A stretch of DNA of 64,000 nucleotides from an uncultured Pseudomonadales bacterium (GCA_964398525.1 CAYNMS010000001.1:6569-70568); one strand, 5' to 3'; shown: positions 1,067 through 64,000, numbered from the stretch's first letter. Notes: a model not told the origin generated them from the letters alone. A program made the numbers and translations.

Positions 1067-1129
1067 GCTCTTTAGCAAGTGAAGAGAAAGATAGCGAGTT
1101 CTTATCGTAATTAGACTTTATCTTTTTAC

Positions 1130-4050
<2,921 letters not shown>

Positions 4051-4327
4051 AGTCAAGATTAAAGTCTGATCTAATAAGACCTACTGGTTTAAAGTTTAAA
4101 AAAACCTTAAACATTTATCTTCTCTTCACTTGTTAAAGAACAAATACTGCCGGGGTATTCCCTCTTGCAGATCCCGTACCGACTCTCTTTTGCTAATCTC
4201 TCTGTAGCCGGACAGCTACTCAATTAGACAATTTATCAAGTCGTCTTGTGGGATTAATGTGCTTCGAGTTTAAAGACTCGCGAAAGCCAATCTTTCAAGG
4301 CTTTAGCCAATCTTCAATTCTCGTTTG

Positions 4328-4400
4328 TGGACCTGAGCGGGCTCGAACCGCTTACCTCGTCATTGCAAATGACGCGCTCTACCAGCTGAGCTACAGGCCC
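4328..4400 (-). tRNA. tRNA-Ala (anticodon TGC)
   Basis: Reverse complement GGGCCTGTAGCTCAGCTGGTAGAGCGCGTCATTTGCAATGACGAGGTAAGCGGTTCGAGCCCGCTCAGGTCCA folds as a cloverleaf with anticodon loop TTTGCAA. It lies about 280 nt upstream of the 23S 5' end. CCA not encoded. Confidence 0.9.
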
Positions 4401-12659: not shown

Positions 12660-12719
12660 AATCCTGTTTATGAATATTGATTTCTAGAAAGAAACATTCT
12701 CCACTCACACATCTTCTTG

Positions 12720-12793
12720 TGGGTGAGCCAGGAATCGAACCTGGGACCTCTATCTTATCAGGATAGCGCTCTAACCGACTGAGCTACTCACCC
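12720..12793 (-). tRNA. tRNA-Ile (anticodon GAT)
   Basis: Reverse complement GGGTGAGTAGCTCAGTCGGTTAGAGCGCTATCCTGATAAGATAGAGGTCCCAGGTTCGATTCCTGGCTCACCCA. Cloverleaf with loop CTGATAA. It lies in the middle of protein genes, far from both rRNAs. Confidence 0.9.
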
Positions 12794-19540: not shown

Positions 19541-21044
<1,504 letters not shown>

Positions 21045-23398: not shown

Positions 23399-24544
23399 TT
23401 ACTCCCTTATTACTCCTCCCCCTATCATACACGCCCCACTGTCCTTCCCATCATAAAACACACAAGCCTGCCCCGGCGCCACTCCCCTCAATGGTTTCGG
23501 CGTCTGCACTTTTACGCTTCCCCTCTCTCTTGCCACATTCGCTTCCACCAACTCTCCCAAATTTCTTATCCTCACCCACACCTTCATGTTTGAAGCCAAT
23601 TCTTCTTCAGATACCAGCCAGTTCATCTCTTCCACTTCAAACTTATCTCTCTCCAATTCCACCTCCTCACCAATCATCAATTGGTTTTTCTCAACGTTCT
23701 TACCCACCACATATAGAGGCGGCAGTTCCCGAGGTTCCCAGTCAATCACCCCTCTTTCCTTAAGCTTCTTAATTCGTCTTTTATCCAATCCTTTACCCAC
23801 CCGTTGGCCAATCGTGTAAAACCACGCTCCCTCATGCTCACCCACTCTTTCTCTGGTACCACCAACATCTACCACCAATTCCCCCACTTTCTGTTCCAAT
23901 CTCTCCTTTAAAAAATCCCTCACGTTAATCTCTCCCATAAAACAAATCCCCTGGCTATCCGGTTTGCCCGCCGTCTCCAACCCGTACTCCTTTGCCCTTT
24001 CCCTAACCATTTCTTTAGTTTCTATCTCTCCAATTGGAAATAATATTTTTCCCAACTGTTCTGGCTTTAACTGATACAAAAAGTAGCTCTGGTCTTTTTG
24101 GGTGTCCCTTCCTCTCTGCAAGCAGTATTTACTCCCAACTTGTTTTATCCGTGCGTAGTGTCCCGTCGCCACATAATCAAACCTAGCCGGTTTACCCTGA
24201 GCTTGCCCAATAGCCCACTCATAAAACAAACCAAATTTAATTTCTCTATTACACACTGTGTCCGGATTCGGTGTTCTTCCCAATTCATACTCTCTATAAA
24301 AATAATCCACCACTTTCTTTTTATACTCATCTCGGAAATCCAACACCTTAAACGGTATTTCCAATTTCAAGGCTACTGCCAAAGCATCCTTACGATCCTC
24401 CTCCGCCCTACAACCAGGCGCCCTCCAACACTCCAAAAACACTCCGGTTACATCATAACCGGCCTCCACCAGCATTGCCGCCGCCACCGACGAATCCACC
24501 CCTCCCGACAACCCTACTGCCACTTTTTTTCTCCCCTGTGTCAT
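23399..24544 (-). CDS. mnmA: tRNA-specific 2-thiouridylase MnmA
   Basis: PP-loop VAVGLSGGVDSSVAA, conserved catalytic Cys residues, and the NREIKF and GHYAR motifs characteristic of MnmA/TrmU. Confidence 0.9.
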   Translation of the reverse strand: MTQGRKKVAVGLSGGVDSSVAAAMLVEAGYDVTGVFLECWRAPGCRAEEDRKDALAVALKLEIPFKVLDFRDEYKKKVVDYFYREYELGRTPNPDTVCNREIKFGLFYEWAIGQAQGKPARFDYVATGHYARIKQVGSKYCLQRGRDTQKDQSYFLYQLKPEQLGKILFPIGEIETKEMVRERAKEYGLETAGKPDSQGICFMGEINVRDFLKERLEQKVGELVVDVGGTRERVGEHEGAWFYTIGQRVGKGLDKRRIKKLKERGVIDWEPRELPPLYVVGKNVEKNQLMIGEEVELERDKFEVEEMNWLVSEEELASNMKVWVRIRNLGELVEANVARERGSVKVQTPKPLRGVAPGQACVFYDGKDSGACMIGGGVIRE

Positions 24545-55197: not shown

Positions 55198-57156
55198 TCA
55201 ACGCTTGTTTGTCTTACTCACTCGTCTAGTGTTTTTAACCGCAACGCTTTTCCTTACCTTCTTGGCAGCCACTCTGGCTTTAGGTACTCCGACCAATTTT
55301 TCAAAATCCTCTCCATCAATCGTCTCTATTTTAACCAACTCCTCACTTACCCTATCCAGGATTTTCTTGTTTTTCTTCAGTATCGCCCTTGCCAATTCTT
55401 GTGCTTCTGACAGCAGCTTTTGCATTTCCTTATCTACCCTAGACTGAATCTCATCCGATATCTTGGTTGGTTCCATCACCGCCCGACCCCACTCTGTCGT
55501 CTCATACTGAGGCCCAAAATAAACCGGCCCCAGTCCACTCATTCCATAATCCACCACCATTGCTCTAGCTATCCTTGTGGCCCGACTTATATCACTCGAA
55601 GCCCCAGCTGTAAGTTCACCAAAAATCAGCTCCTCTGCTTCTCGACCTCCCATCATCACTGCCATCATTTCCATCAGTTCACTCTTAGTTTGCTGGTATT
55701 TATCCTGCTCTGGGGGCGTCATTGTAAAACCCAAAGCTTTACCTCTGGACACAATACTAATCCTGTGGACCGCATCCGCATGTGGACTAAAGTGAGCTAC
55801 CAGTGCATGTCCAGCCTCATGATAAGCCGTCATCTTTCTATCATGCTCGCTCTGAAGTCTCTTTTTGCTCGGTCCCAATTTCACCTTGGTTGCCGCTTCT
55901 TCCAAATCTTCCCAAGTTATTTCTTTACGTTCTTCTCTCGCGGTCAAGATTGCCGCCTCATTAAGCATGTTCTCCAGATCCGCTCCCGAAAAGCCCACCG
56001 TTCTTCTGGCAGCCCGATCCCAATCCATGTTTTTACTCACGGGTTTACCCAAACCATGGATTTTTAAGACTCTTTTTCTCTCGTCCAAATCAGGCAAATC
56101 TATCTGCACTCTCCTGTCAAATCTTCCCGGTCTAGTCAACGCCGGATCCAACAGATCTCCTCTGTTTGTCGCCGCCAACACCATCACGCTGTCATTTCTG
56201 GTAAACCCATCCATTTCCACCAAGATCTGATTCAAAGTTTGCTCTCTTTCGTCATGACCTCCAGCCGCTCCCAAACCCCTCATTCTTCCAATCGCATCAA
56301 TCTCATCGATAAAAATAATCGAAGGCGCGTTTTTCTTGGCCGTCTCAAATAAATCTCGGACTCTGCTGGCACCCACTCCCACCAACATTTCCATAAACTC
56401 ACTTCCAGCCATTGAGAAAAACGGCACTCCAGCTTCCCCTGCCACTGCCCGAGCTAATAAAGTTTTACCTGTTCCCGCAGGCCCAACCAACAACACGCCT
56501 TTTGGAGTACGCGCCCCCACTTTAGTGTATTTCTTGGGGTGTTTCAAAAAATCAACTACTTCTTCTAATTCTTTCTTAGCTTCATCCACTCCCCCCACAT
56601 CTTTAAAGGTCACATCCTGCTTGCCCTTGCTAAATAATTTTGCCTTACTTCTACCAAACCCCAAAATCCCGTCTTGTGCTCCTCTGGCTTGTCTTATCAA
56701 AAATAGGAAAAATACTCCCATCAACACCAAAGGCAGCAATGTTCCCAAAATATCCACCCACATCCTGCTCATCGATTGATCCGCTACCTCAAGCTCTACA
56801 TCGGCTACTTCCACTCCTGCGTTTTGCAGAATTTCCGTAAACGAACCCTGATCTTCAATCCTAGAATTAACTGGTTGTTCTTGATCCGCATAAAACACTC
56901 TTAGCGTTCTTCCTTCAATCAAAATTCGCTCCACCTTACCCGCTTTCACATCTGCTACTACCTCAGACAAAGGTACTTCCTCTCCGTTGCCCATTCCTCC
57001 AAAAAGCGACACAATAAACGGCACAAATAATAACAAAATCAGCAGCCACATCAACGCTCTGCGAAAATTAAACTTAAATTCCATCTCAATCTTTTTTAGA
57101 GGCTTTTTGCCTTTGGAGTCTGGTTTATCCTGCTTTTTTTCAGTTTTCTTCGCCAT
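55198..57156 (-). CDS. ftsH: ATP-dependent zinc metalloprotease FtsH
   Basis: Two N-terminal TM, AAA+ Walker [19 protein letters not shown], second region of homology, zinc site HEAGHAL. Confidence 0.95.
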
Positions 57157-57257: not shown

Positions 57258-57599
57258 TTATCTAACTATTGTACCCTTCGGCACCTCCCGACTAATCTCA
57301 ATTGGAATAGGCTTCTCTTGTGTGTCGCTCATCAACATCATTCCCTGACTCTCTTCTCCTCCCATTTTCTTGGGTTCCAGGTTCACCACAAACACACCCT
57401 TTTTGCCTACCATTTCCTCCGGCGAATAAACCCCTTTCACTCCGGCAAATATCACTCTTTCTCCCAACTCCTCACCTAAATCAACCGTTAGCTTTAATAA
57501 TTTACGGCTCCATTCCGGCTCTTCACACGCCACTACCTCCCCCACTCTCAACTCCAATTTCAAAAAATCTTCAAACTTAATCATGTCTTTCATCATCAA
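57258..57599 (-). CDS. tRNA-binding domain protein (CsaA/Myf/EMAP-II-like OB fold)
   Basis: DFLKLELRVGEVVACEE...KLLKLTVDLGEE...VVNLEPKKMGGEESQGMML matches the MetRS C-terminal/CsaA tRNA-binding domain pattern. Immediately downstream of trpS. Confidence 0.7.
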   Translation of the reverse strand: MMMKDMIKFEDFLKLELRVGEVVACEEPEWSRKLLKLTVDLGEELGERVIFAGVKGVYSPEEMVGKKGVFVVNLEPKKMGGEESQGMMLMSDTQEKPIPIEISREVPKGTIVR

Positions 57600-57608
57600 C
57601 TCCTTTTA

Positions 57609-58622
57609 TTAACGATTTAACTTATTCCTCTCCCCAATCACCTCATAAACTTCTTTAAGTGTCTCGCCTGCCAACTTCCTCGCTCTATCTGCCCCCTCCG
57701 CCAAAATCTCCCTCACTCGATCCACGTCTTCCTCTAACTCTTTCCTTCTTTGTCTCATGGGTTCAAATAGTTTCTGGTGCGCTTCATATAACTTTTGCTT
57801 CACTTCCACATCCCCAACTTTCCCTTCTCTGTACCTTACCTTCAAGTCTTCCACCTCATTCTCCCGCTCATTCATCAAATCGTGGTAGATAAACACCGGA
57901 TTCCCTTCTACTCTACCGGGGTCAGTCGGGTGAATTCTGGCTGGATCTGTAAAACTGCCCATTATCTGTTTTCGCACCATTTCAGGTTCAACAAAAATCC
58001 CAATCGTATTCCCCAAACTCTTACTCATTTTCCGCTCCCCATCCGTTCCTACAATCTTCCCCGTTTCTTTGCTAATCATCGGCTCTGGCAACGAAAACAC
58101 TTGTGATTTATAAGTCCGGTTAAAGTTTTCTGCAATATCTCGGGCTAGTTCTATATGCTGCCTCTGGTCTTCACCCACCGGCACTCCATCTGGCTTGTAC
58201 GCCAAAATATCCGCTGCCATCAATATTGGGTAATTAAATAGCCCCATATTAATCGCATCTCGCCTCTCCCCCTTCTCCAATTTATCTTTAAACGCATGCA
58301 TCCGTTTCATCTGTCCATACGACACATAGTTAGCCAGTACCACCGCCAACTGAGACTGTTCCGGTACATCCGACTGCCTAAAAAACACACACTTTTCCGG
58401 ATCAAGCCCCAAGGCTAAATAATCTAAAACCACCCCCACAATGTTTTTCTCCAATTCATCTTTATTCTGAACCGTCGTCAATGCGTGCAAATCTGCTACA
58501 AAATAATAAGTCTCTTCGATACTGTCTTGTAGCTCAATATGAGGCTTCACCGCCCCAAAATAATTCCCAATATGCAACTCGCTCCCACTTGGTGTAATCC
58601 CTGCTAGTACTCTTTTAAACAT
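57609..58622 (-). CDS. trpS: tryptophan--tRNA ligase
   Basis: Class I HIGH-type motif (TPSGSELHIGNYFG), KMSKS, and the Trp-specific GxDQ region (PVGEDQRQHIEL). Confidence 0.9.
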   Translation of the reverse strand: MFKRVLAGITPSGSELHIGNYFGAVKPHIELQDSIEETYYFVADLHALTTVQNKDELEKNIVGVVLDYLALGLDPEKCVFFRQSDVPEQSQLAVVLANYVSYGQMKRMHAFKDKLEKGERRDAINMGLFNYPILMAADILAYKPDGVPVGEDQRQHIELARDIAENFNRTYKSQVFSLPEPMISKETGKIVGTDGERKMSKSLGNTIGIFVEPEMVRKQIMGSFTDPARIHPTDPGRVEGNPVFIYHDLMNERENEVEDLKVRYREGKVGDVEVKQKLYEAHQKLFEPMRQRRKELEEDVDRVREILAEGADRARKLAGETLKEVYEVIGERNKLNR

Positions 58623-60344: not shown

Positions 60345-60373
60345 TTGAACCAAACCCCTTTGCCTGATAAAAT
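60345..60373 (+). promoter_or_regulatory. sigma70-type promoter for the tRNA(CAT) gene (-35 TTGAAC / 17 nt / -10 TAAAAT)
   Basis: Near-consensus hexamers with 17-nt spacer. Predicted TSS 2-4 nt before the tRNA 5' end. Confidence 0.45.
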
Positions 60374-60383
60374 ACCTCTTACG

Positions 60384-60456
60384 CGCGGGGTAGTGTACGG
60401 TAGCACGTGAGGCTCATAATCTCACAGACCAGGTTCAACTCCTGGCCCCGCAACCA
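60384..60456 (+). tRNA. tRNA-Met (anticodon CAT), initiator-like
   Basis: CGCGGGG...CCCCGCAACCA, the same ends as E. coli tRNA-fMet, with an unpaired C1 x A72 (the bacterial initiator hallmark). Anticodon loop CTCATAA. CCA encoded. The anticodon stem lacks the three consecutive G-C pairs of canonical initiators. Confidence 0.8.
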
Positions 60457-60463
60457 AGAAAAG

Positions 60464-60488
60464 ACCGACCTTCATAGTCGGTTTTTTT
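60464..60488 (+). terminator. rho-independent terminator after tRNA(CAT) no. 1 (ACCGAC-loop-GTCGGT + T7)
   Basis: 6-bp stem followed by TTTTTTT on +. Confidence 0.5.
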
Positions 60489-60599
60489 GCTTCTAAATCT
60501 ATCTCCTCGAATTTTTGCCTGCTTTAGCATCTGTTAAAATATCAACTACTAAAGCTCAAGTTGTGCTCATGTTGACTTGCCAAACAAAGCTTTAGTCAA

Positions 60600-60671
60600 G
60601 GCAGGGTAGCTCAATGGCGGAGCAGAGTCTTCATAAGGCTAAGGTTGTGGGTTCGAATCCCACCCCTGCTA
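60600..60671 (+). tRNA. tRNA with CAT anticodon (elongator tRNA-Met, or tRNA-Ile2 if lysidinylated)
   Basis: GGCAGGGTAGCTCAATGGCGGAGCAGAGTCTTCATAAGGCTAAGGTTGTGGGTTCGAATCCCACCCCTGCTA. Cloverleaf with loop TTCATAA, G1-U72 pair, 27-43 mismatch. No CCA encoded. Confidence 0.75.
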
Positions 60672-60677
60672 CAGTCT

Positions 60678-61067
60678 TCACCAAAACAACTCCACCCACT
60701 GGACCCACACCGGTTTTTCTTCCTCCACCTCTGGCTTTTCTATTCCCTGGTCAGCCACCATCACCTTTTCAATCAGTTCATCCGGTATCACCACCACCGC
60801 CTCTCCAGGCTTAACCAATCCTAGTTCCTCACGAATATACACTTCATCCGCACCCGGACTCTCTACTTTCCTTTTCTCTTCCTCCAAAGCCTCTTTTTCC
60901 TCAATCAACTTCACCACTTCCGCCTCTTCTTTTTCCACTCTCCCACCTACACTCAACAATTCCACCAGGTTTCCTAGAAGCGAAATGGTGAACATCAACC
61001 AAATACCCACAATCATCATTGCCCCGATCTTCTTTCTTGTAGTAAAATTGTTTGCACTTAAACTCAT
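60678..61067 (-). CDS. FtsB/DivIC-like septum-formation protein (N-terminal TM + coiled coil), tentative
   Basis: One TM (IGAMMIVGIWLMFTISLLG), then a Glu/Lys-rich heptad region (EKEEAEVVKLIEEKEALEEEKRK) and PGE... as in DivIC/FtsB. Size and architecture only. Confidence 0.35.
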   Translation of the reverse strand: MSLSANNFTTRKKIGAMMIVGIWLMFTISLLGNLVELLSVGGRVEKEEAEVVKLIEEKEALEEEKRKVESPGADEVYIREELGLVKPGEAVVVIPDELIEKVMVADQGIEKPEVEEEKPVWVQWVELFW

Positions 61068-61164
61068 AATATGTTATTATAAGCCTATTCTTTTGGCCTG
61101 GTTCTTGCCCCCCGACCACTAAGTCCGGCTTTGCTGCCATCATTATTAACTAGACTTAATTGTA

Positions 61165-62046
61165 ATGGAAAACCCCGATTCCGCCACTTCTCTTTCTGCC
61201 ACTCACCAACAATTCATCAAAAATCTCCGTGACAAAGGCCGAGCCAATGCCACCATTCTTGCCTATGGCAAAGATATTGACCAGCTAATTGAATTCGCCG
61301 CTCTCCAAAAAATCACCGCCCCTCAAGCTATTACCCCCAACTTAATTGAACAATTCAAAGCCCACCTCGAAGCAGAAGGCTACACTCCTAAATCTATCTC
61401 CAGAAAAATCAACTCTATCAAGTCGTATTTTCGTTTTCTCCGTTCCCAAAAACTAATCCAAGACAATCCAGCCAACGACATCTCTCATCCCAAAGTCGAA
61501 CTTACCCCACCCAGAATTCTCACCAAACTCGAATACCGCGCCCTTCGCGATGCTTGTCGTCGTGACGAACGCGTCAGCGCCATTGTCGAACTCCTGCTCC
61601 AAACCGGTATTCGTATTAGTGAGTTGGCCGGCCTTAATCTGGAAGATGTCGACGCTACCAATAAAAAGATCCACATCCGCTCCGAAGCCGATCATGAAGC
61701 TCGTTCCATTCCTCTCAATCAGCCTGCAGCCAAAGCCCTAGAGGAATACCTAAAGTATCGACCCAAAACCAATGCCAAAACCCTCTTTGTTACCAAAACC
61801 GGCCGACCATTCCTTATCAGAAACATTCGTGCTGCCATTGATCGCTACTTCCGTCTTGCCGGCATCACCAATGCCAAAGTCAACGACTTAAGACACACCT
61901 TCATCGCCGAGCAATTAGCCGCCGGCACCCCCCTAGTCTATGTCAGCAAACTTGTCGGCCACAAACGCCTGACCACTACCGAAAAATATCTCAAATTCCT
62001 CGATAACCGCATGGAGAAAAACGAAGTTCGCCTCCAGGAACTCTAA
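61165..62046 (+). CDS. tyrosine site-specific recombinase (XerC/XerD-like integrase)
   Basis: N-terminal SAM-like core-binding domain. Catalytic R (GIRISEL), H-x-x-R (DLRHTFIAEQL), second His (LVGHKRL) and nucleophile Tyr (TTEKYLKF). 293 aa. Codon usage is host-like. Confidence 0.85.
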   Translation: MENPDSATSLSATHQQFIKNLRDKGRANATILAYGKDIDQLIEFAALQKITAPQAITPNLIEQFKAHLEAEGYTPKSISRKINSIKSYFRFLRSQKLIQDNPANDISHPKVELTPPRILTKLEYRALRDACRRDERVSAIVELLLQTGIRISELAGLNLEDVDATNKKIHIRSEADHEARSIPLNQPAAKALEEYLKYRPKTNAKTLFVTKTGRPFLIRNIRAAIDRYFRLAGITNAKVNDLRHTFIAEQLAAGTPLVYVSKLVGHKRLTTTEKYLKFLDNRMEKNEVRLQEL

Positions 62047-62432
62047 TGCCCGAACTCCCATTTGAGTCTGGGGGTCGAATTTGCCCCTTCACTTCTCACG
62101 ATCCAGACGGCAATCCTGACTTTTGTCGCAGAAAAAGCTGTCTCTTAAACAATATTCCCGACTGTGTTTTAGAAAGTTTAAAAATATCTGCCGAAGCCTA
62201 CTCAATTGATCAATTAGAAAATGAAGAAGAACAAGCTTCTCGAACATCTGATGTTCCCCCATTTCTCATCTCCCTCAGATTAGGAAGAGAACTTTTTGAG
62301 ATTCAACAAGAAATCGACAATACCACTAGACAACTAAGAATTAATCGTGATCAGTTTATCTCAAGCCTTCCTCAACAGCTTAGACCTCTCACCTATTCAC
62401 ACCCCAAATCATCAGAAGAAAGAACAGCTTAG
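62046..62432 (+). CDS. hypothetical protein with N-terminal Cys cluster, translationally coupled to the recombinase (TAATG overlap)
   Basis: C-x..C...C..C in the first 40 aa. The 3' two-thirds (after ~62160) are AT-rich and lose the host's C-over-G bias. Confidence 0.3.
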   Translation: MPELPFESGGRICPFTSHDPDGNPDFCRRKSCLLNNIPDCVLESLKISAEAYSIDQLENEEEQASRTSDVPPFLISLRLGRELFEIQQEIDNTTRQLRINRDQFISSLPQQLRPLTYSHPKSSEERTA

Positions 62433-62680
62433 TGTGCCGATTTCTTCTTCCTTAGTTTCACTCCTTCAAACACCTGCTCTTCCCCAGTTTCTTCATCTAC
62501 AATCTTGATAGTATAAGTTCTTCCCTCATCCTTTTCCTCTAACTTGTCTTGGCTATAAAAAAACTCATCCCAAAACGCCGCCTCGTAATCATCGTCTTGA
62601 AACATTTCACTCGTGTCTTCATCAAAATCAAAGTCATCTGAAAATTTCTTACTCATATTCCTCCTTGAGTATTTCCCCAA
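62429..62680 (-). CDS. small highly acidic protein (83 aa; D/E/F-rich)
   Basis: MGKYSRRNMSKKFSDDFDFDEDTSEMFQDDDYEAAFWDEFFYSQDKLEEKDEG... has a net negative charge of about -15. Convergent with the preceding ORF. Confidence 0.4.
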   Translation of the reverse strand: MGKYSRRNMSKKFSDDFDFDEDTSEMFQDDDYEAAFWDEFFYSQDKLEEKDEGRTYTIKIVDEETGEEQVFEGVKLRKKKSAH

Positions 62681-62778
62681 AAGCAGATGCTATAATAACA
62701 CCTCCCTCGAGTAAATACTACTACCACAGACTATAGCTCTTTTTCCCTTTTGTTCCCAGTACGCTAAAATACCCATAC

Positions 62779-62802
62779 GGGAGTGTAGCTCAGTGGTAGA
62801 AC
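62779..62802 (+). other. 5' tRNA fragment (acceptor 5' strand + D-arm: GGGAGTGTAGCTCAGTGGTAGAAC)
   Basis: Matches the canonical tRNA 5' third, but no anticodon arm follows. Its acceptor strand is complementary to the 3' fragment at 62963..62992. Confidence 0.5.
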
Positions 62803-62825
62803 CTTAAATAATTCCGCGAGTACTT

Positions 62826-62898
62826 GCGCGAGTAGCTCAATTGGCAGAGCTGTCGTCTTATACACGACTGGTTCCAGGTTCAAGTCCTGGCTCGCGCA
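62826..62898 (+). tRNA. tRNA-Ile (anticodon TAT; UAU decoding AUA)
   Basis: GCGCGAGTAGCTCAATTGGCAGAGCTGTCGTCTTATACACGACTGGTTCCAGGTTCAAGTCCTGGCTCGCGCA. All four stems are perfect (acceptor 7/7, D 4/4, anticodon 5/5, T 5/5). T-loop TTCAAGT. Anticodon loop CTTATAC. Confidence 0.8.
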
Positions 62899-62962
62899 CC
62901 TTTTAAAACGTCTTTTTCTCGCCTGGACCATCCAGGCAGAACAAGCCTAGCTTTTACACGTC

Positions 62963-62992
62963 CGGCCGGAGGTTCGAATCCTCCCGCTCCCA
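62963..62992 (+). other. 3' tRNA fragment (variable region + T-arm GGAGG-TTCGAAT-CCTCC + acceptor 3' strand CGCTCCC + A)
   Basis: Canonical T-arm. Its acceptor 3' strand pairs 7/7 (one G-U) with GGGAGTG of the 5' fragment at 62779. Together they would make a tRNA lacking only the anticodon arm. Confidence 0.5.
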
Positions 62993-63078
62993 CCTCTCTA
63001 AACTAGATAGTTAGTCTCAATCAAGTAATTAATTTGCTTTGTCTATCTCCTGTCACTAGACTGAAATATTCCCGATTG

Positions 63079-63618
63079 ATGAAAGAAACAATTGACTCCG
63101 TCACTCCTGATGATGCCATAGCCGATGCCTTAATATTTGGATATGCTGGTCTAATTCTTAAACAAGCTCATCATTTTCAAGAATCTCAACAAATCTCTTT
63201 GTCAACTATTGCAGCAGAATGTACAGTCCACGAGTGCGTTCCTGCATCAGCCAGAGCACTTGCTTATTTATTCACTCGACACTCCTCACTTTTCAAACGC
63301 TACTTTCTTCTTCATTCAGTTAATGCATTAAAAGGAACTCAACATCTCTGTTACAGCCTTGATCATCTTAAACATCAACTCCAAACCCAGCCACGCTCTC
63401 ACCCCCTAGTTTCCTATCCTGCCTATCAATATCCTGACTCCAACCAACACATGCTCTTTGTAGTCCTTGACAATAACAACCATTTTCATTGGGGATCTCC
63501 TGCCAATTCAGAAGTCAACGATCATCATACGCAACTATCCAAAATAATAACTTCACACAATGCTCCTGACATACCAACTTTAATTACTCAAGTTACCTCA
63601 TACGAAGGTGGTCTTTGA
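63079..63618 (+). CDS. hypothetical His-rich protein (180 aa) with atypical base composition
   Basis: ORF from the ATG at 63079. G is about equal to C on the + strand here, unlike the host pattern where C greatly exceeds G. No motif recognised. Confidence 0.4.
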   Translation: MKETIDSVTPDDAIADALIFGYAGLILKQAHHFQESQQISLSTIAAECTVHECVPASARALAYLFTRHSSLFKRYFLLHSVNALKGTQHLCYSLDHLKHQLQTQPRSHPLVSYPAYQYPDSNQHMLFVVLDNNNHFHWGSPANSEVNDHHTQLSKIITSHNAPDIPTLITQVTSYEGGL

Positions 63619-64000
63619 CCATCAGCCAGTTATCTTGAGTATCTTTTTACAAACCAACTTATCCCCACCCATCCATTTTTTAGTAACGATAAGCCAGGTT
63701 GGGAAATTACCAAATCCACTCACACTTCACTTCAAGATTACAATCAATATTACCATCATTTTGGCATCTGCCCTCCCATGATTGTCCACTTAACAACTCC
63801 TGACTCCAATCAAGCCTTCGTTTCCCACACTCGATTAACCTTCAACTTCTCTGCTGCATAGTTTTCAAAACTTTTTCAATATTTAATCAATCTGTTATCA
63901 AGCTAAAAAAAACTACTCTCATACTTTTTTCAGTCGCTTTCCTTTTCATCTTAGATTAATCCCACCACTCCCCCAACTTTATTTTCGCCAGTTGCCAACA

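Follow-up and report, generated by a model that had tools for sequence, protein, structure and literature searches.

TilS, which converts a tRNA-Ile with a CAU anticodon to lysidine-AU for the reading of AUA, has been put forward as a drug target and is taken to be conserved in ~98% of bacterial genomes (PMC12514573), and in papers of 2025-2026 bacterial tRNA-Ile(UAU) is still referred to as "rare cases" (bioRxiv 10.64898/2026.02.03.703510). Taniguchi et al. (2013) described nine species in three clades that have tDNA-Ile(TAT) and no tilS, at a time when 371 unassigned metagenomic TAT tDNAs were known, and gave as hallmarks of the Mycoplasma mobile system an unmodified U34, an isoleucyl-tRNA synthetase (IleRS) in which Arg865 stands where E. 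coli has Trp905, and rejection of AUG by the ribosome (PMC3575796). More recently, File S5 of tRNAscan-SE 2.0 listed 17 bacterial genomes as 'missing Ile2, presence of Ile3-TAT', from Bifidobacterium adolescentis, haemoplasmas, M. mobile, Neorickettsia and WWE3 bacterium RAAC2_WWE3_1; the last of these belongs to the candidate phyla radiation (CPR, Patescibacteria) and is given in a table only, with no discussion of CPR (PMC8450103). Here we describe a 64,000-nucleotide stretch of DNA labelled as an uncultured Pseudomonadales bacterium (GCA_964398525.1, CAYNMS010000001.1:6569-70568; the whole stretch is hereafter 'the window'), which carries a tRNA-Ile gene with a TAT anticodon beside two CAT-anticodon tRNA genes. 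We consider it probable that AUA is read by this UAU-only tRNA-Ile, with no TilS or lysidine, in a Microgenomates-group CPR bacterium.

tRNA genes in the window were called by ARAGORN and cross-checked with Rfam RF00005, giving five tRNAs, all above the Rfam gathering score:

60384-60456, plus strand: initiator-type tRNA(CAU), CAT_1 (ARAGORN; Rfam 52.9 bits, E 1.6e-08)
60600-60672, plus strand: elongator tRNA-Met(CAU), CAT_2 (ARAGORN; Rfam 61.9 bits)
62826-62900, plus strand: functional tRNA-Ile(UAU), 'type B' (ARAGORN; Rfam 68.8 bits, E 6.9e-13)
12719-12793, minus strand: tRNA-Ile(GAU), the reader of AUU and AUC (ARAGORN, Rfam)
4327-4400, minus strand: tRNA-Ala(TGC) (ARAGORN, Rfam)

The original prediction for this DNA, namely a canonical tRNA whose TAT anticodon is written in the genome, together with exactly two CAT tRNAs, an initiator and an elongator tRNA-Met, is borne out within the window by both programs, by the C1xA72 of CAT_1 and by the Met-type features of CAT_2. 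Seven metagenome contigs with 99.97-100% identity to the window have the same three tRNAs. Sequencing runs in which the organism occurs are SRR10807626, SRR10580905 and SRR34646252-71.

Every stem of the tRNA-Ile(UAU) is paired and its anticodon loop is CUUAUAC (C32, C38), with T34-A35-T36 at 62859-62861; at its 3' end CC is encoded and the full CCA is not. It bears A73, C4-G69, U12-A23, C29-G41 and A37, whilst position 38 is C and not A. This list of positions corresponds to the identity elements of E. coli IleRS, among which is A38. The body of the tRNA-Ile(GAU) is unlike that of the TAT tRNA, with a D loop of AGTCGGTT as against AATTGGC. CAT_1 encodes its CCA and has a C1xA72 mismatch that is kept in CPR homologues. 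In the textbook bacterial initiator the anticodon stem closes at its lower end with a run of three G-C pairs, and A11 pairs with U24; CAT_1 has neither of these hallmarks, its anticodon stem being U27-A43, G28-C42, A29-U41, G30-C40 and G31.U39 and its positions 11-24 U-A. Since G31.U39 recurs in CPR initiators, in place of the canonical third G-C pair, the deviation of CAT_1 looks like a lineage trait and not decay.

CAT_2 has G1.U72, G2-C71, C3-G70, C31-G39 and a UUCAUAA loop, and lacks C4 and C5. It belongs with the second of a pair of CAT tRNAs that accompanies the TAT tRNA in CPR loci. One of this pair is always of the CGCGGGR...CCCGCAACCA type with C1xA72, and is seen beside the elongator CAT in WWE3, Saccharibacteria and Microgenomates loci; the other is a family with the loop UUCAUAAG. 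CC at positions 4-5 was found in 0/13 of this second family compared with 53/56 of classical tRNA-Ile2 sequences, and the 31-39 pair is Y31-G39 in 13/13 of the former and G31-C39 in 52/56 of the latter. Elongator tRNA-Met from other phyla shares G39, and also a GGC start with the Microgenomates sequences. Having tRNA-Met features and no tRNA-Ile2 signatures, CAT_2 is therefore predicted to be the elongator tRNA-Met and not a TilS substrate. A third CAT tRNA with the tRNA-Ile2 signatures C4-G69, C5-G68 and G31-C39 was not found within the window. Position 32 of the CPR elongator tRNA-Met is U in 13/13 and C in other phyla, and the anticodon-loop rules of CPR look shifted.

The distribution of the TAT tRNA was assessed by scanning one genome per species (185,579 species) with a pattern made of the D arm and anticodon loop of the window tRNA, in which the D-arm sequence was fixed and position 34 could be C or T; this gave at least 120 loci (loci are cited below by L number). 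Among the matches listed, TAT tRNAs with an ordinary (short) variable loop were found in CPR genomes in 21/24 cases and elsewhere in 3/24, whereas CAT matches were from CPR in 0/82 and from other genomes in 82/82 (Fisher p = 2.5e-19). The CPR carriers of TAT among these matches are WWE3 (including the complete RAAC2 genome), Saccharibacteria, Parcubacteria, Campbellbacteria, Brennerbacteria, Microgenomates and unclassified Patescibacteria; the CAT matches listed are mostly classical tRNA-Ile2 (GGGCCC..., CCGGCUCAUAACCGG) of Desulfovibrio, Aquificae, Methylomirabilota, Syntrophales and others. With closer relatives added, 22 distinct CPR TAT tRNAs kept 21/21 base pairs, 14/21 with compensatory double changes, and had an invariant CUUAUA loop. 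The D arm of the CPR TAT tRNAs is AATTGGCAGAGC. C38 is present in 26/27 CPR tRNA-Ile(UAU) sequences and A38 in all the CAU-type tRNAs compared. The mean identity of the window TAT tRNA is 0.70 to tRNA-Ile2(CAU), a value inflated by the fixed D arm, and 0.58 to tRNA-Ile(GAU). Taken together these comparisons show a conserved, covarying tRNA with a tRNA-Ile2-type body (D arm, A73, C4-G69, U12-A23, C29-G41) but with T34 and C38.

Two further kinds of UAU-anticodon locus were noted. Fourteen loci (L017, L020, L049, L056, L059, L079, L081, L087, L090, L097, L110, L117, L123 and L126), from Acidobacteria, Hyphomicrobiales/Rhodomicrobiaceae and Cyanobacteria/Obscuribacterales, carry a UAU-anticodon tRNA of 90-95 nt with a long variable arm; 12 of the 14 adjoin other tRNA genes, several being dense arrays of up to ~23 tRNAs in a few kb, in which the tRNA-Leu genes seem short (~75 nt). 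L075 and L127 are contigs of metagenome-assembled genomes (MAGs) labelled 'uncultured Pseudomonadales' (one of 363 kb) that have a Parcubacteria-type tRNA-Ile(TAT), CAAG-CUUAUAC-CUUG, so that either the label is wrong or this type is used outside CPR. In two Desulfovibrionaceae loci, L068 and L088, a single stretch of 8 kb holds both the tRNA-Ile2(CAU) gene and the 3' end of ileS.

A check on AUA usage, which the original prediction had called for, showed the codon to be both frequent and aligned with isoleucine. In 55 non-overlapping open reading frames (ORFs) of the window ATA makes up 251 of 16,475 codons (15.2 per 1000, 27% of isoleucine codons) and is present in 52 of the ORFs. Usage above 10 per 1000 is the 'high' class in a recent TilS paper (PMC12514573). 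At 30 ATA positions in conserved genes the orthologues have isoleucine, leucine, valine and methionine at frequencies of 0.37, 0.23, 0.15 and 0.02 respectively, a profile that resembles ATT/ATC positions and differs from ATG positions (methionine 0.26), which argues that AUA is not reassigned and codes for isoleucine. From homology, from this codon-to-residue alignment and from the lack of another AUA reader we infer that the TAT tRNA has isoleucine identity.

We then considered the genomic setting of the three tRNAs. Homologues of the window tyrosine recombinase from named organisms are ~62% identical and come from Chisholmbacteria, Woesebacteria and Cerribacteria, indicating that the source of the window is a bacterium of the Microgenomates group of CPR; the housekeeping genes of the window are typical of a reduced genome. 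The genes around the tRNAs are:

55198-57156, minus strand: ftsH (NCBIfam TIGR01241, 735.9 bits)
57258-57599: ORF with a tRNA_bind domain, upstream of ftsH (Pfam)
57609-58622: trpS, upstream of ftsH (Pfam)
60678-61067, minus strand: septum-formation gene of the DivIC/FtsB family, between the CAT pair and xer, kept in relatives (Pfam PF04977)
61165-62046, plus strand: tyrosine recombinase of the XerC/D type, with XerC/XerD/XerA-like scores (Pfam, NCBIfam)
62429-62680, minus strand: hyp83, a small conserved ORF between xer and the tRNA-Ile locus, with 41-65% identity in all close relatives (tblastn)

The order TAT, xer, (divIC), CAT, CAT, trpS, ftsH and 5'-3' exonuclease recurs across CPR phyla: the block is conserved in WWE3 RAAC2, in MAGs labelled Saccharibacteria, in Microgenomates, in a Saccharimonadales MAG and in all close relatives, and on two further CPR contigs it is preceded by suf genes and hpf, whilst the TAT tRNA of Parcubacteria-type loci is the immediate neighbour of ftsH. 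The tRNAs that serve the AUA and AUG codons would therefore sit in an old, vertically inherited CPR gene block.

No tilS was found in the window, in which the sole protein with an SGGxDS/PP-loop motif is MnmA; this protein was considered as a candidate TilS and rejected, as Pfam and NCBIfam identify it as MnmA:

23399-24544: MnmA, tRNA 2-thiouridine-34 synthase, the sole tRNA-modification enzyme recognised in the window

Nor was tilS found in the slot upstream of ftsH that it classically occupies, either in the window or in any TAT-state locus examined. An Aquifex TilS query detected no TilS-like sequence in either the window or 330 kb of CPR loci in the TAT state, the sole weak match being the MnmA PP-loop, and neither a PF01171 gene (among the called genes) nor, with the window included, ileS was found in any CPR locus examined. 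The complete WWE3 RAAC2_WWE3_1 genome (locus L099) has the same TAT-xer-CAT-CAT-trpS-ftsH cluster as the window and, as it is listed as missing Ile2, is a complete CPR genome of this type without tRNA-Ile2(CAU).

A different arrangement is found in Southlakia epibionticum, a complete, cultivated Saccharibacterium, which has a TilS (SEML1_0730, K04075, PF01171 6.8e-45) encoded directly upstream of ftsH (SEML1_0729), three 'tRNA-Met' (CAT) genes within 6 kb (SEML1_0733, 0739 and 0741), two of which flank a DivIC-family gene, and a single 'tRNA-Ile', in the rRNA operon, with no TAT tRNA (PMC10633639). On these annotations CPR has both states, tilS with three CAT tRNAs as against no tilS at the locus with two CAT and one TAT, and the two look like alternatives in the same neighbourhood. 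The window, with a tRNA_bind-domain ORF and trpS rather than tilS upstream of ftsH, is assigned to the UAU state. Since L141, a MAG labelled with the same order as Southlakia, is in the TAT state, the switch would not be a single deep event. FtsH searches aimed at a tilS-state Saccharimonadales locus returned TAT-state or WWE3-like sequences only.

These two states bear directly on whether the organism might read AUA twice, with tRNA-Ile(UAU) and with a tilS and tRNA-Ile2(CAU) located outside the window. Both systems are present in Lactobacillus casei and L. plantarum (PMC3575796), at least one CPR bacterium (Southlakia) has tilS, and the window amounts to ~8% of a typical CPR genome. Redundancy is nevertheless unlikely in our view, given that RAAC2 combines the same cluster with the lack of tRNA-Ile2(CAU), that Southlakia combines tilS with three CAT and no TAT, so that the states look alternative, and that the slot upstream of ftsH is without tilS here and at every TAT-state locus.

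The preferred reading, that of a UAU-only tRNA-Ile, would operate as follows. AUA would be decoded by a dedicated tRNA with a genome-written UAU anticodon, the U34 of which would pair directly with the third-position A, so that TilS conversion of a CAU tRNA to lysidine-AU would not be needed. The TAT tRNA most likely arose from a tRNA-Ile2(CAU) gene through a C34-to-T change, after which tilS would have become dispensable. Such a system would entail the absence of tilS genome-wide and acceptance of UAU by IleRS, and AUG would be kept from being misread either at the ribosome or through the unusual C32/C38 loop or a putative modification of U34.

For the features seen, namely a TAT tRNA, AUA as isoleucine and no Ile2-type CAT tRNA in the window, the system is functionally the solution of M. 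mobile, Bifidobacterium and Neorickettsia. As in M. mobile, a genome-encoded TAT replaces tRNA-Ile2(CAU) in a reduced genome that uses AUA, and tilS, which is absent in M. mobile (PMC3575796), is predicted to be absent here; the two differ in that M. mobile is a single species of Mollicutes, whereas here the tRNA is spread over many candidate phyla of CPR, an unrelated lineage, and has C38 in place of the A38 of all CAU-type tRNAs compared. The closest counterpart, WWE3 RAAC2, is also a CPR member with the same syntenic cluster and a tRNA 81% identical to the window TAT tRNA, but belongs to another candidate phylum, and the window gene is in addition nested in a broken older copy. In B. adolescentis and Neorickettsia TAT is likewise present, tRNA-Ile2(CAU) missing and tilS absent, and these lineages have a eukaryote-type IleRS (PMC3575796). 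With the classical TilS system, Southlakia included, the window tRNA shares its body type (D arm, A73, C29-G41), and with Southlakia also the ftsH/divIC neighbourhood, but it has T34 instead of C34, and there are two CAT tRNAs instead of three and no tilS upstream of ftsH. B. subtilis tilS-deletion suppressors also read AUA with a UAU isoleucine tRNA and no lysidine (Fabret 2011; Kohrer 2014, PMC3919564), although that tRNA is a mutated copy of tRNA-Ile1(GAU) (PMC3919564), whereas the body of the window tRNA is tRNA-Ile2-like and unlike its own tRNA-Ile(GAU).

The comparison with M. mobile leaves room for a variant in which the TAT tRNA reads AUA but AUG is excluded by a modification of U34 (or position 37) and not by policing at the ribosome. 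Eukaryotes use pseudouridine-A-pseudouridine for this anticodon and M. suis may modify U34 (PMC3575796). The nearly invariant C32/C38 loop of the CPR tRNAs could be a determinant of modification or tuning, and MnmA, the s2U34 synthase, is encoded in the window. Known MnmA substrates, however, have U35, which UAU does not, and CPR genomes are in general poor in modification enzymes. We rate this variant as somewhat less likely than not.

The immediate surroundings of the tRNA-Ile(UAU) gene were found to have a layered structure:

62688-62696, plus strand: extended -10-like element TGCTATAAT, 5' of the tRNA-Ile locus (sequence)
62779-62802, plus strand: 5' fragment of a broken 'type A' tRNA-Ile(UAU), comprising the acceptor 5' strand and D arm, with 3 mismatches in 24 nt to L139 and L132
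62803-62934, plus strand: 132-bp insert with the functional tRNA, between direct repeats
62935-62994, plus strand: 3' part of the broken type-A tRNA-Ile(UAU) (alignment to L132)

On either side of the insert is a direct repeat of 8 bp (GGTAGAAC at 62795-62802 and GGCAGAAC at 62935-62942); the insert contains a partial copy, GCGAGTA (62816-62822), of the 5' end of its own tRNA and a hairpin at 62921-62937. The type-A 3' part consists of the 3' half of the D arm, a decayed anticodon arm (loop CTTTTAC, 62951-62957), the variable loop, the T arm and the acceptor 3' strand, with which (62985-62991) the 5' acceptor strand of the other fragment pairs, followed by A73 (62992) and CC; its T arm and acceptor (27 nt) have 1 mismatch to L132 and 5 to L139. 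These two loci, the closest relatives by Xer identity (L139 79%, L132 77%), have an intact tRNA-Ile(TAT) at this position, whilst L136, L133 and L135 carry the other form, to which the functional copy of the window is 0.90-0.93 identical over its core (positions 8-65; 0.93 to L136, 0.91 to L133). Given an intact type-A orthologue in L139 and L132 and the type-B match elsewhere, we interpret the locus as a resident 'type A' gene interrupted by 132 bp of inserted DNA with a 'type B' gene in it. The working gene would thus be a second copy, which came to lie, with a short flanking duplication, midway through the resident tRNA-Ile(UAU) gene and which probably uses the resident promoter: a TGCTATAATAACAC motif is also found upstream of the TAT tRNA in the relatives L139 and L138, and TGCTATAAT probably drives the nested tRNA and the whole structure. 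The origin of the insert could not be traced, the intergenic flanks of relatives being too diverged.

An intron or split tRNA was also tried as an explanation and rejected: ARAGORN with introns allowed finds nothing, there is no 5' anticodon-stem strand, and the anticodon varies with the join. Of 1200 artificial interior deletions, 212 led ARAGORN to call a tRNA that runs across both fragments, with an inconsistent anticodon, and the intact orthologue in L139 and L132 leads us to prefer a disrupted gene. Because the insert itself supplied an intact TAT gene, the organism would have kept a UAU tRNA throughout, as would be expected if tRNA-Ile(UAU) is indispensable.

That the TAT tRNA lies inside a broken tRNA gene might suggest a decaying or unexpressed pseudogene, with AUA read in some other way. 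This we regard as extremely improbable in view of the perfect cloverleaf and its 68.8 bits, the strong purifying selection with compensatory changes in the family, the conserved promoter-like element upstream, and the presence of AUA in nearly all ORFs of a window that offers no other candidate reader.

The original prediction had further placed the tRNA in a possibly mobile context and allowed for its horizontal acquisition, in which case the TAT tRNA would be cargo of a mobile element with the adjacent recombinase as integrase, and accessory to the decoding of the host. A tyrosine recombinase does lie 0.8 kb upstream of the TAT tRNA, the ORFs flanking the locus, hyp128 and hyp194, have no homologues in relatives, and a direct repeat flanks the insertion that brought in the functional tRNA. 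Against this, the recombinase is XerC/XerD/XerA-like and lies beside divIC in all relatives across CPR phyla, so that it would be a housekeeping Xer, and the mobile-context part of the prediction fails. The TAT tRNA, moreover, is at this locus in every relative, the inserted copy is the lineage-typical form, and the flanking ORFs match no phage family (neither hyp128 nor hyp194 has a match in Pfam, NCBIfam or PHROGs). Variable integrase or cargo bounded by tRNA-derived att repeats was not seen, the sole repeat being the 8-bp duplication around the 132-bp insert, in which there is nothing but the tRNA. We therefore consider mobile cargo very unlikely; the data support an in-place replacement by a sister-lineage allele, as opposed to the gain of a new function.

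The main decoding proposal is well supported, through the conserved and covarying TAT tRNA, the frequent use of AUA as isoleucine and the Met-type CAT_2. Its companion claim, that the pattern is known only from a minority of bacteria, stands for the listed Bifidobacterium, Mollicutes and Neorickettsia but has to be widened, as the pattern is also conserved in many CPR lineages.

Several points weigh against a UAU-only system. The 64 kb seen come from a genome of probably ~0.7-1 Mb, and tilS and a third CAT tRNA could lie elsewhere. Since tilS is annotated in CPR, in Southlakia, of the same order as the TAT-state L141, membership of a lineage would not alone predict the state. The fixed D arm of the scan would miss a CPR tRNA-Ile2(CAU) with another D arm, and part of the likeness between the TAT tRNA and tRNA-Ile2 follows from the scan pattern itself. 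Finally, C38 departs from the A38 identity element of E. coli IleRS, which bears on the putative isoleucine identity.

Beyond the window, we lean slightly towards a broader reading, in which a large part of CPR gave up TilS and lysidine for a tRNA-Ile(UAU) with the C32/C38 loop, Southlakia-like lineages retained tilS, and several switches or reversions took place. The tRNA-Ile(UAU) lineages would then comprise at least WWE3, Microgenomates, Parcubacteria-type lineages and many Saccharibacteria, with switches even within one order.

Other features were recorded in and around the conserved block. Next to the initiator tRNA these are:

60345-60373, plus strand: promoter-like site, TTGAAC, a 17-nt spacer and TAAAAT with TG, 10 nt 5' of the initiator tRNA (by match to the consensus)
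60460-60488, plus strand: terminator-like hairpin GACCGAC...GTCGGT followed by seven T's, just 3' of the initiator tRNA (sequence)

A separate scan reports the hairpin on the opposite strand. The hyp194 ORF (in the region 63034-63861) stops at an in-frame TGA, 63616-63618, which is followed by 80 further open codons up to the TAG at 63859-63861, and may be a pseudogene or involve readthrough or a recoded stop. In L133 and L135 the CAT tRNAs 5' of divIC run against xer, whereas those of the window, L136, L137, L138 and L140 share its strand (with the elongator CAT alone found in L138 and L140). The TAT tRNA shares the strand of xer in the subgroup to which the window belongs and runs against it in L108, WWE3 and Saccharibacteria. 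These strand differences suggest small inversions, confined to the tRNA genes, in an otherwise fixed order of genes. PF05635 ('23S rRNA intervening sequence protein') genes are found near xer/ftsH in L135 (1864-2223) and L138 (3259-3633) and are absent from the window, some CPR FtsH genes have intein/LAGLIDADG insertions of ~1.2-1.3 kb (L040, FtsH 4-834 and 2083-3021; P0241; P0259), and L143 (1-1576) encodes a SufB with an intein. The rRNA genes of the window are unlinked, the 16S (19541-21042) and 23S (1123-4053) being ~15 kb apart and separated by ruvA, ruvB, ruvC, transporters, hypotheticals, the tRNA-Ile(GAT) at 12719 and the tRNA-Ala at 4327; a 5S rRNA was not found in the window. A metagenome scan with the window Xer protein recovered recombinases of 26-30% identity only, and an exact cluster look-up of four window proteins gave no match, probably because of start-codon differences.

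Searches of the literature for TilS or lysidine in CPR, Patescibacteria or Saccharibacteria gave no relevant paper, and the breadth of tRNA-Ile(UAU) across CPR, the conserved C38, the two states within CPR and the nested replacement appear to be unreported. Mollicutes, Bifidobacterium and Neorickettsia make up the published lists of exceptions to TilS, with a single CPR genome standing unremarked in a supplementary table (PMC8450103). The present comparisons instead suggest that the UAU solution is a conserved state in many lineages of CPR, a radiation that holds a large share of bacterial diversity. If this is true, UAU-based decoding of AUA would be a major bacterial strategy and not a rarity. 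For annotation, the combination of CAT and TAT tRNAs with a 'missing Ile2' in CPR genomes would not be a sign of incompleteness, and the nested gene would offer a clear case of an essential tRNA gene replaced in place. CPR would also, if the reading is correct, provide a natural series for how cells keep a U34 tRNA off AUG, in which tilS-using and UAU-using relatives would allow comparison of the adaptation of IleRS and the ribosome, of the role of C38, and of the order in which the tRNA changed and tilS was lost.

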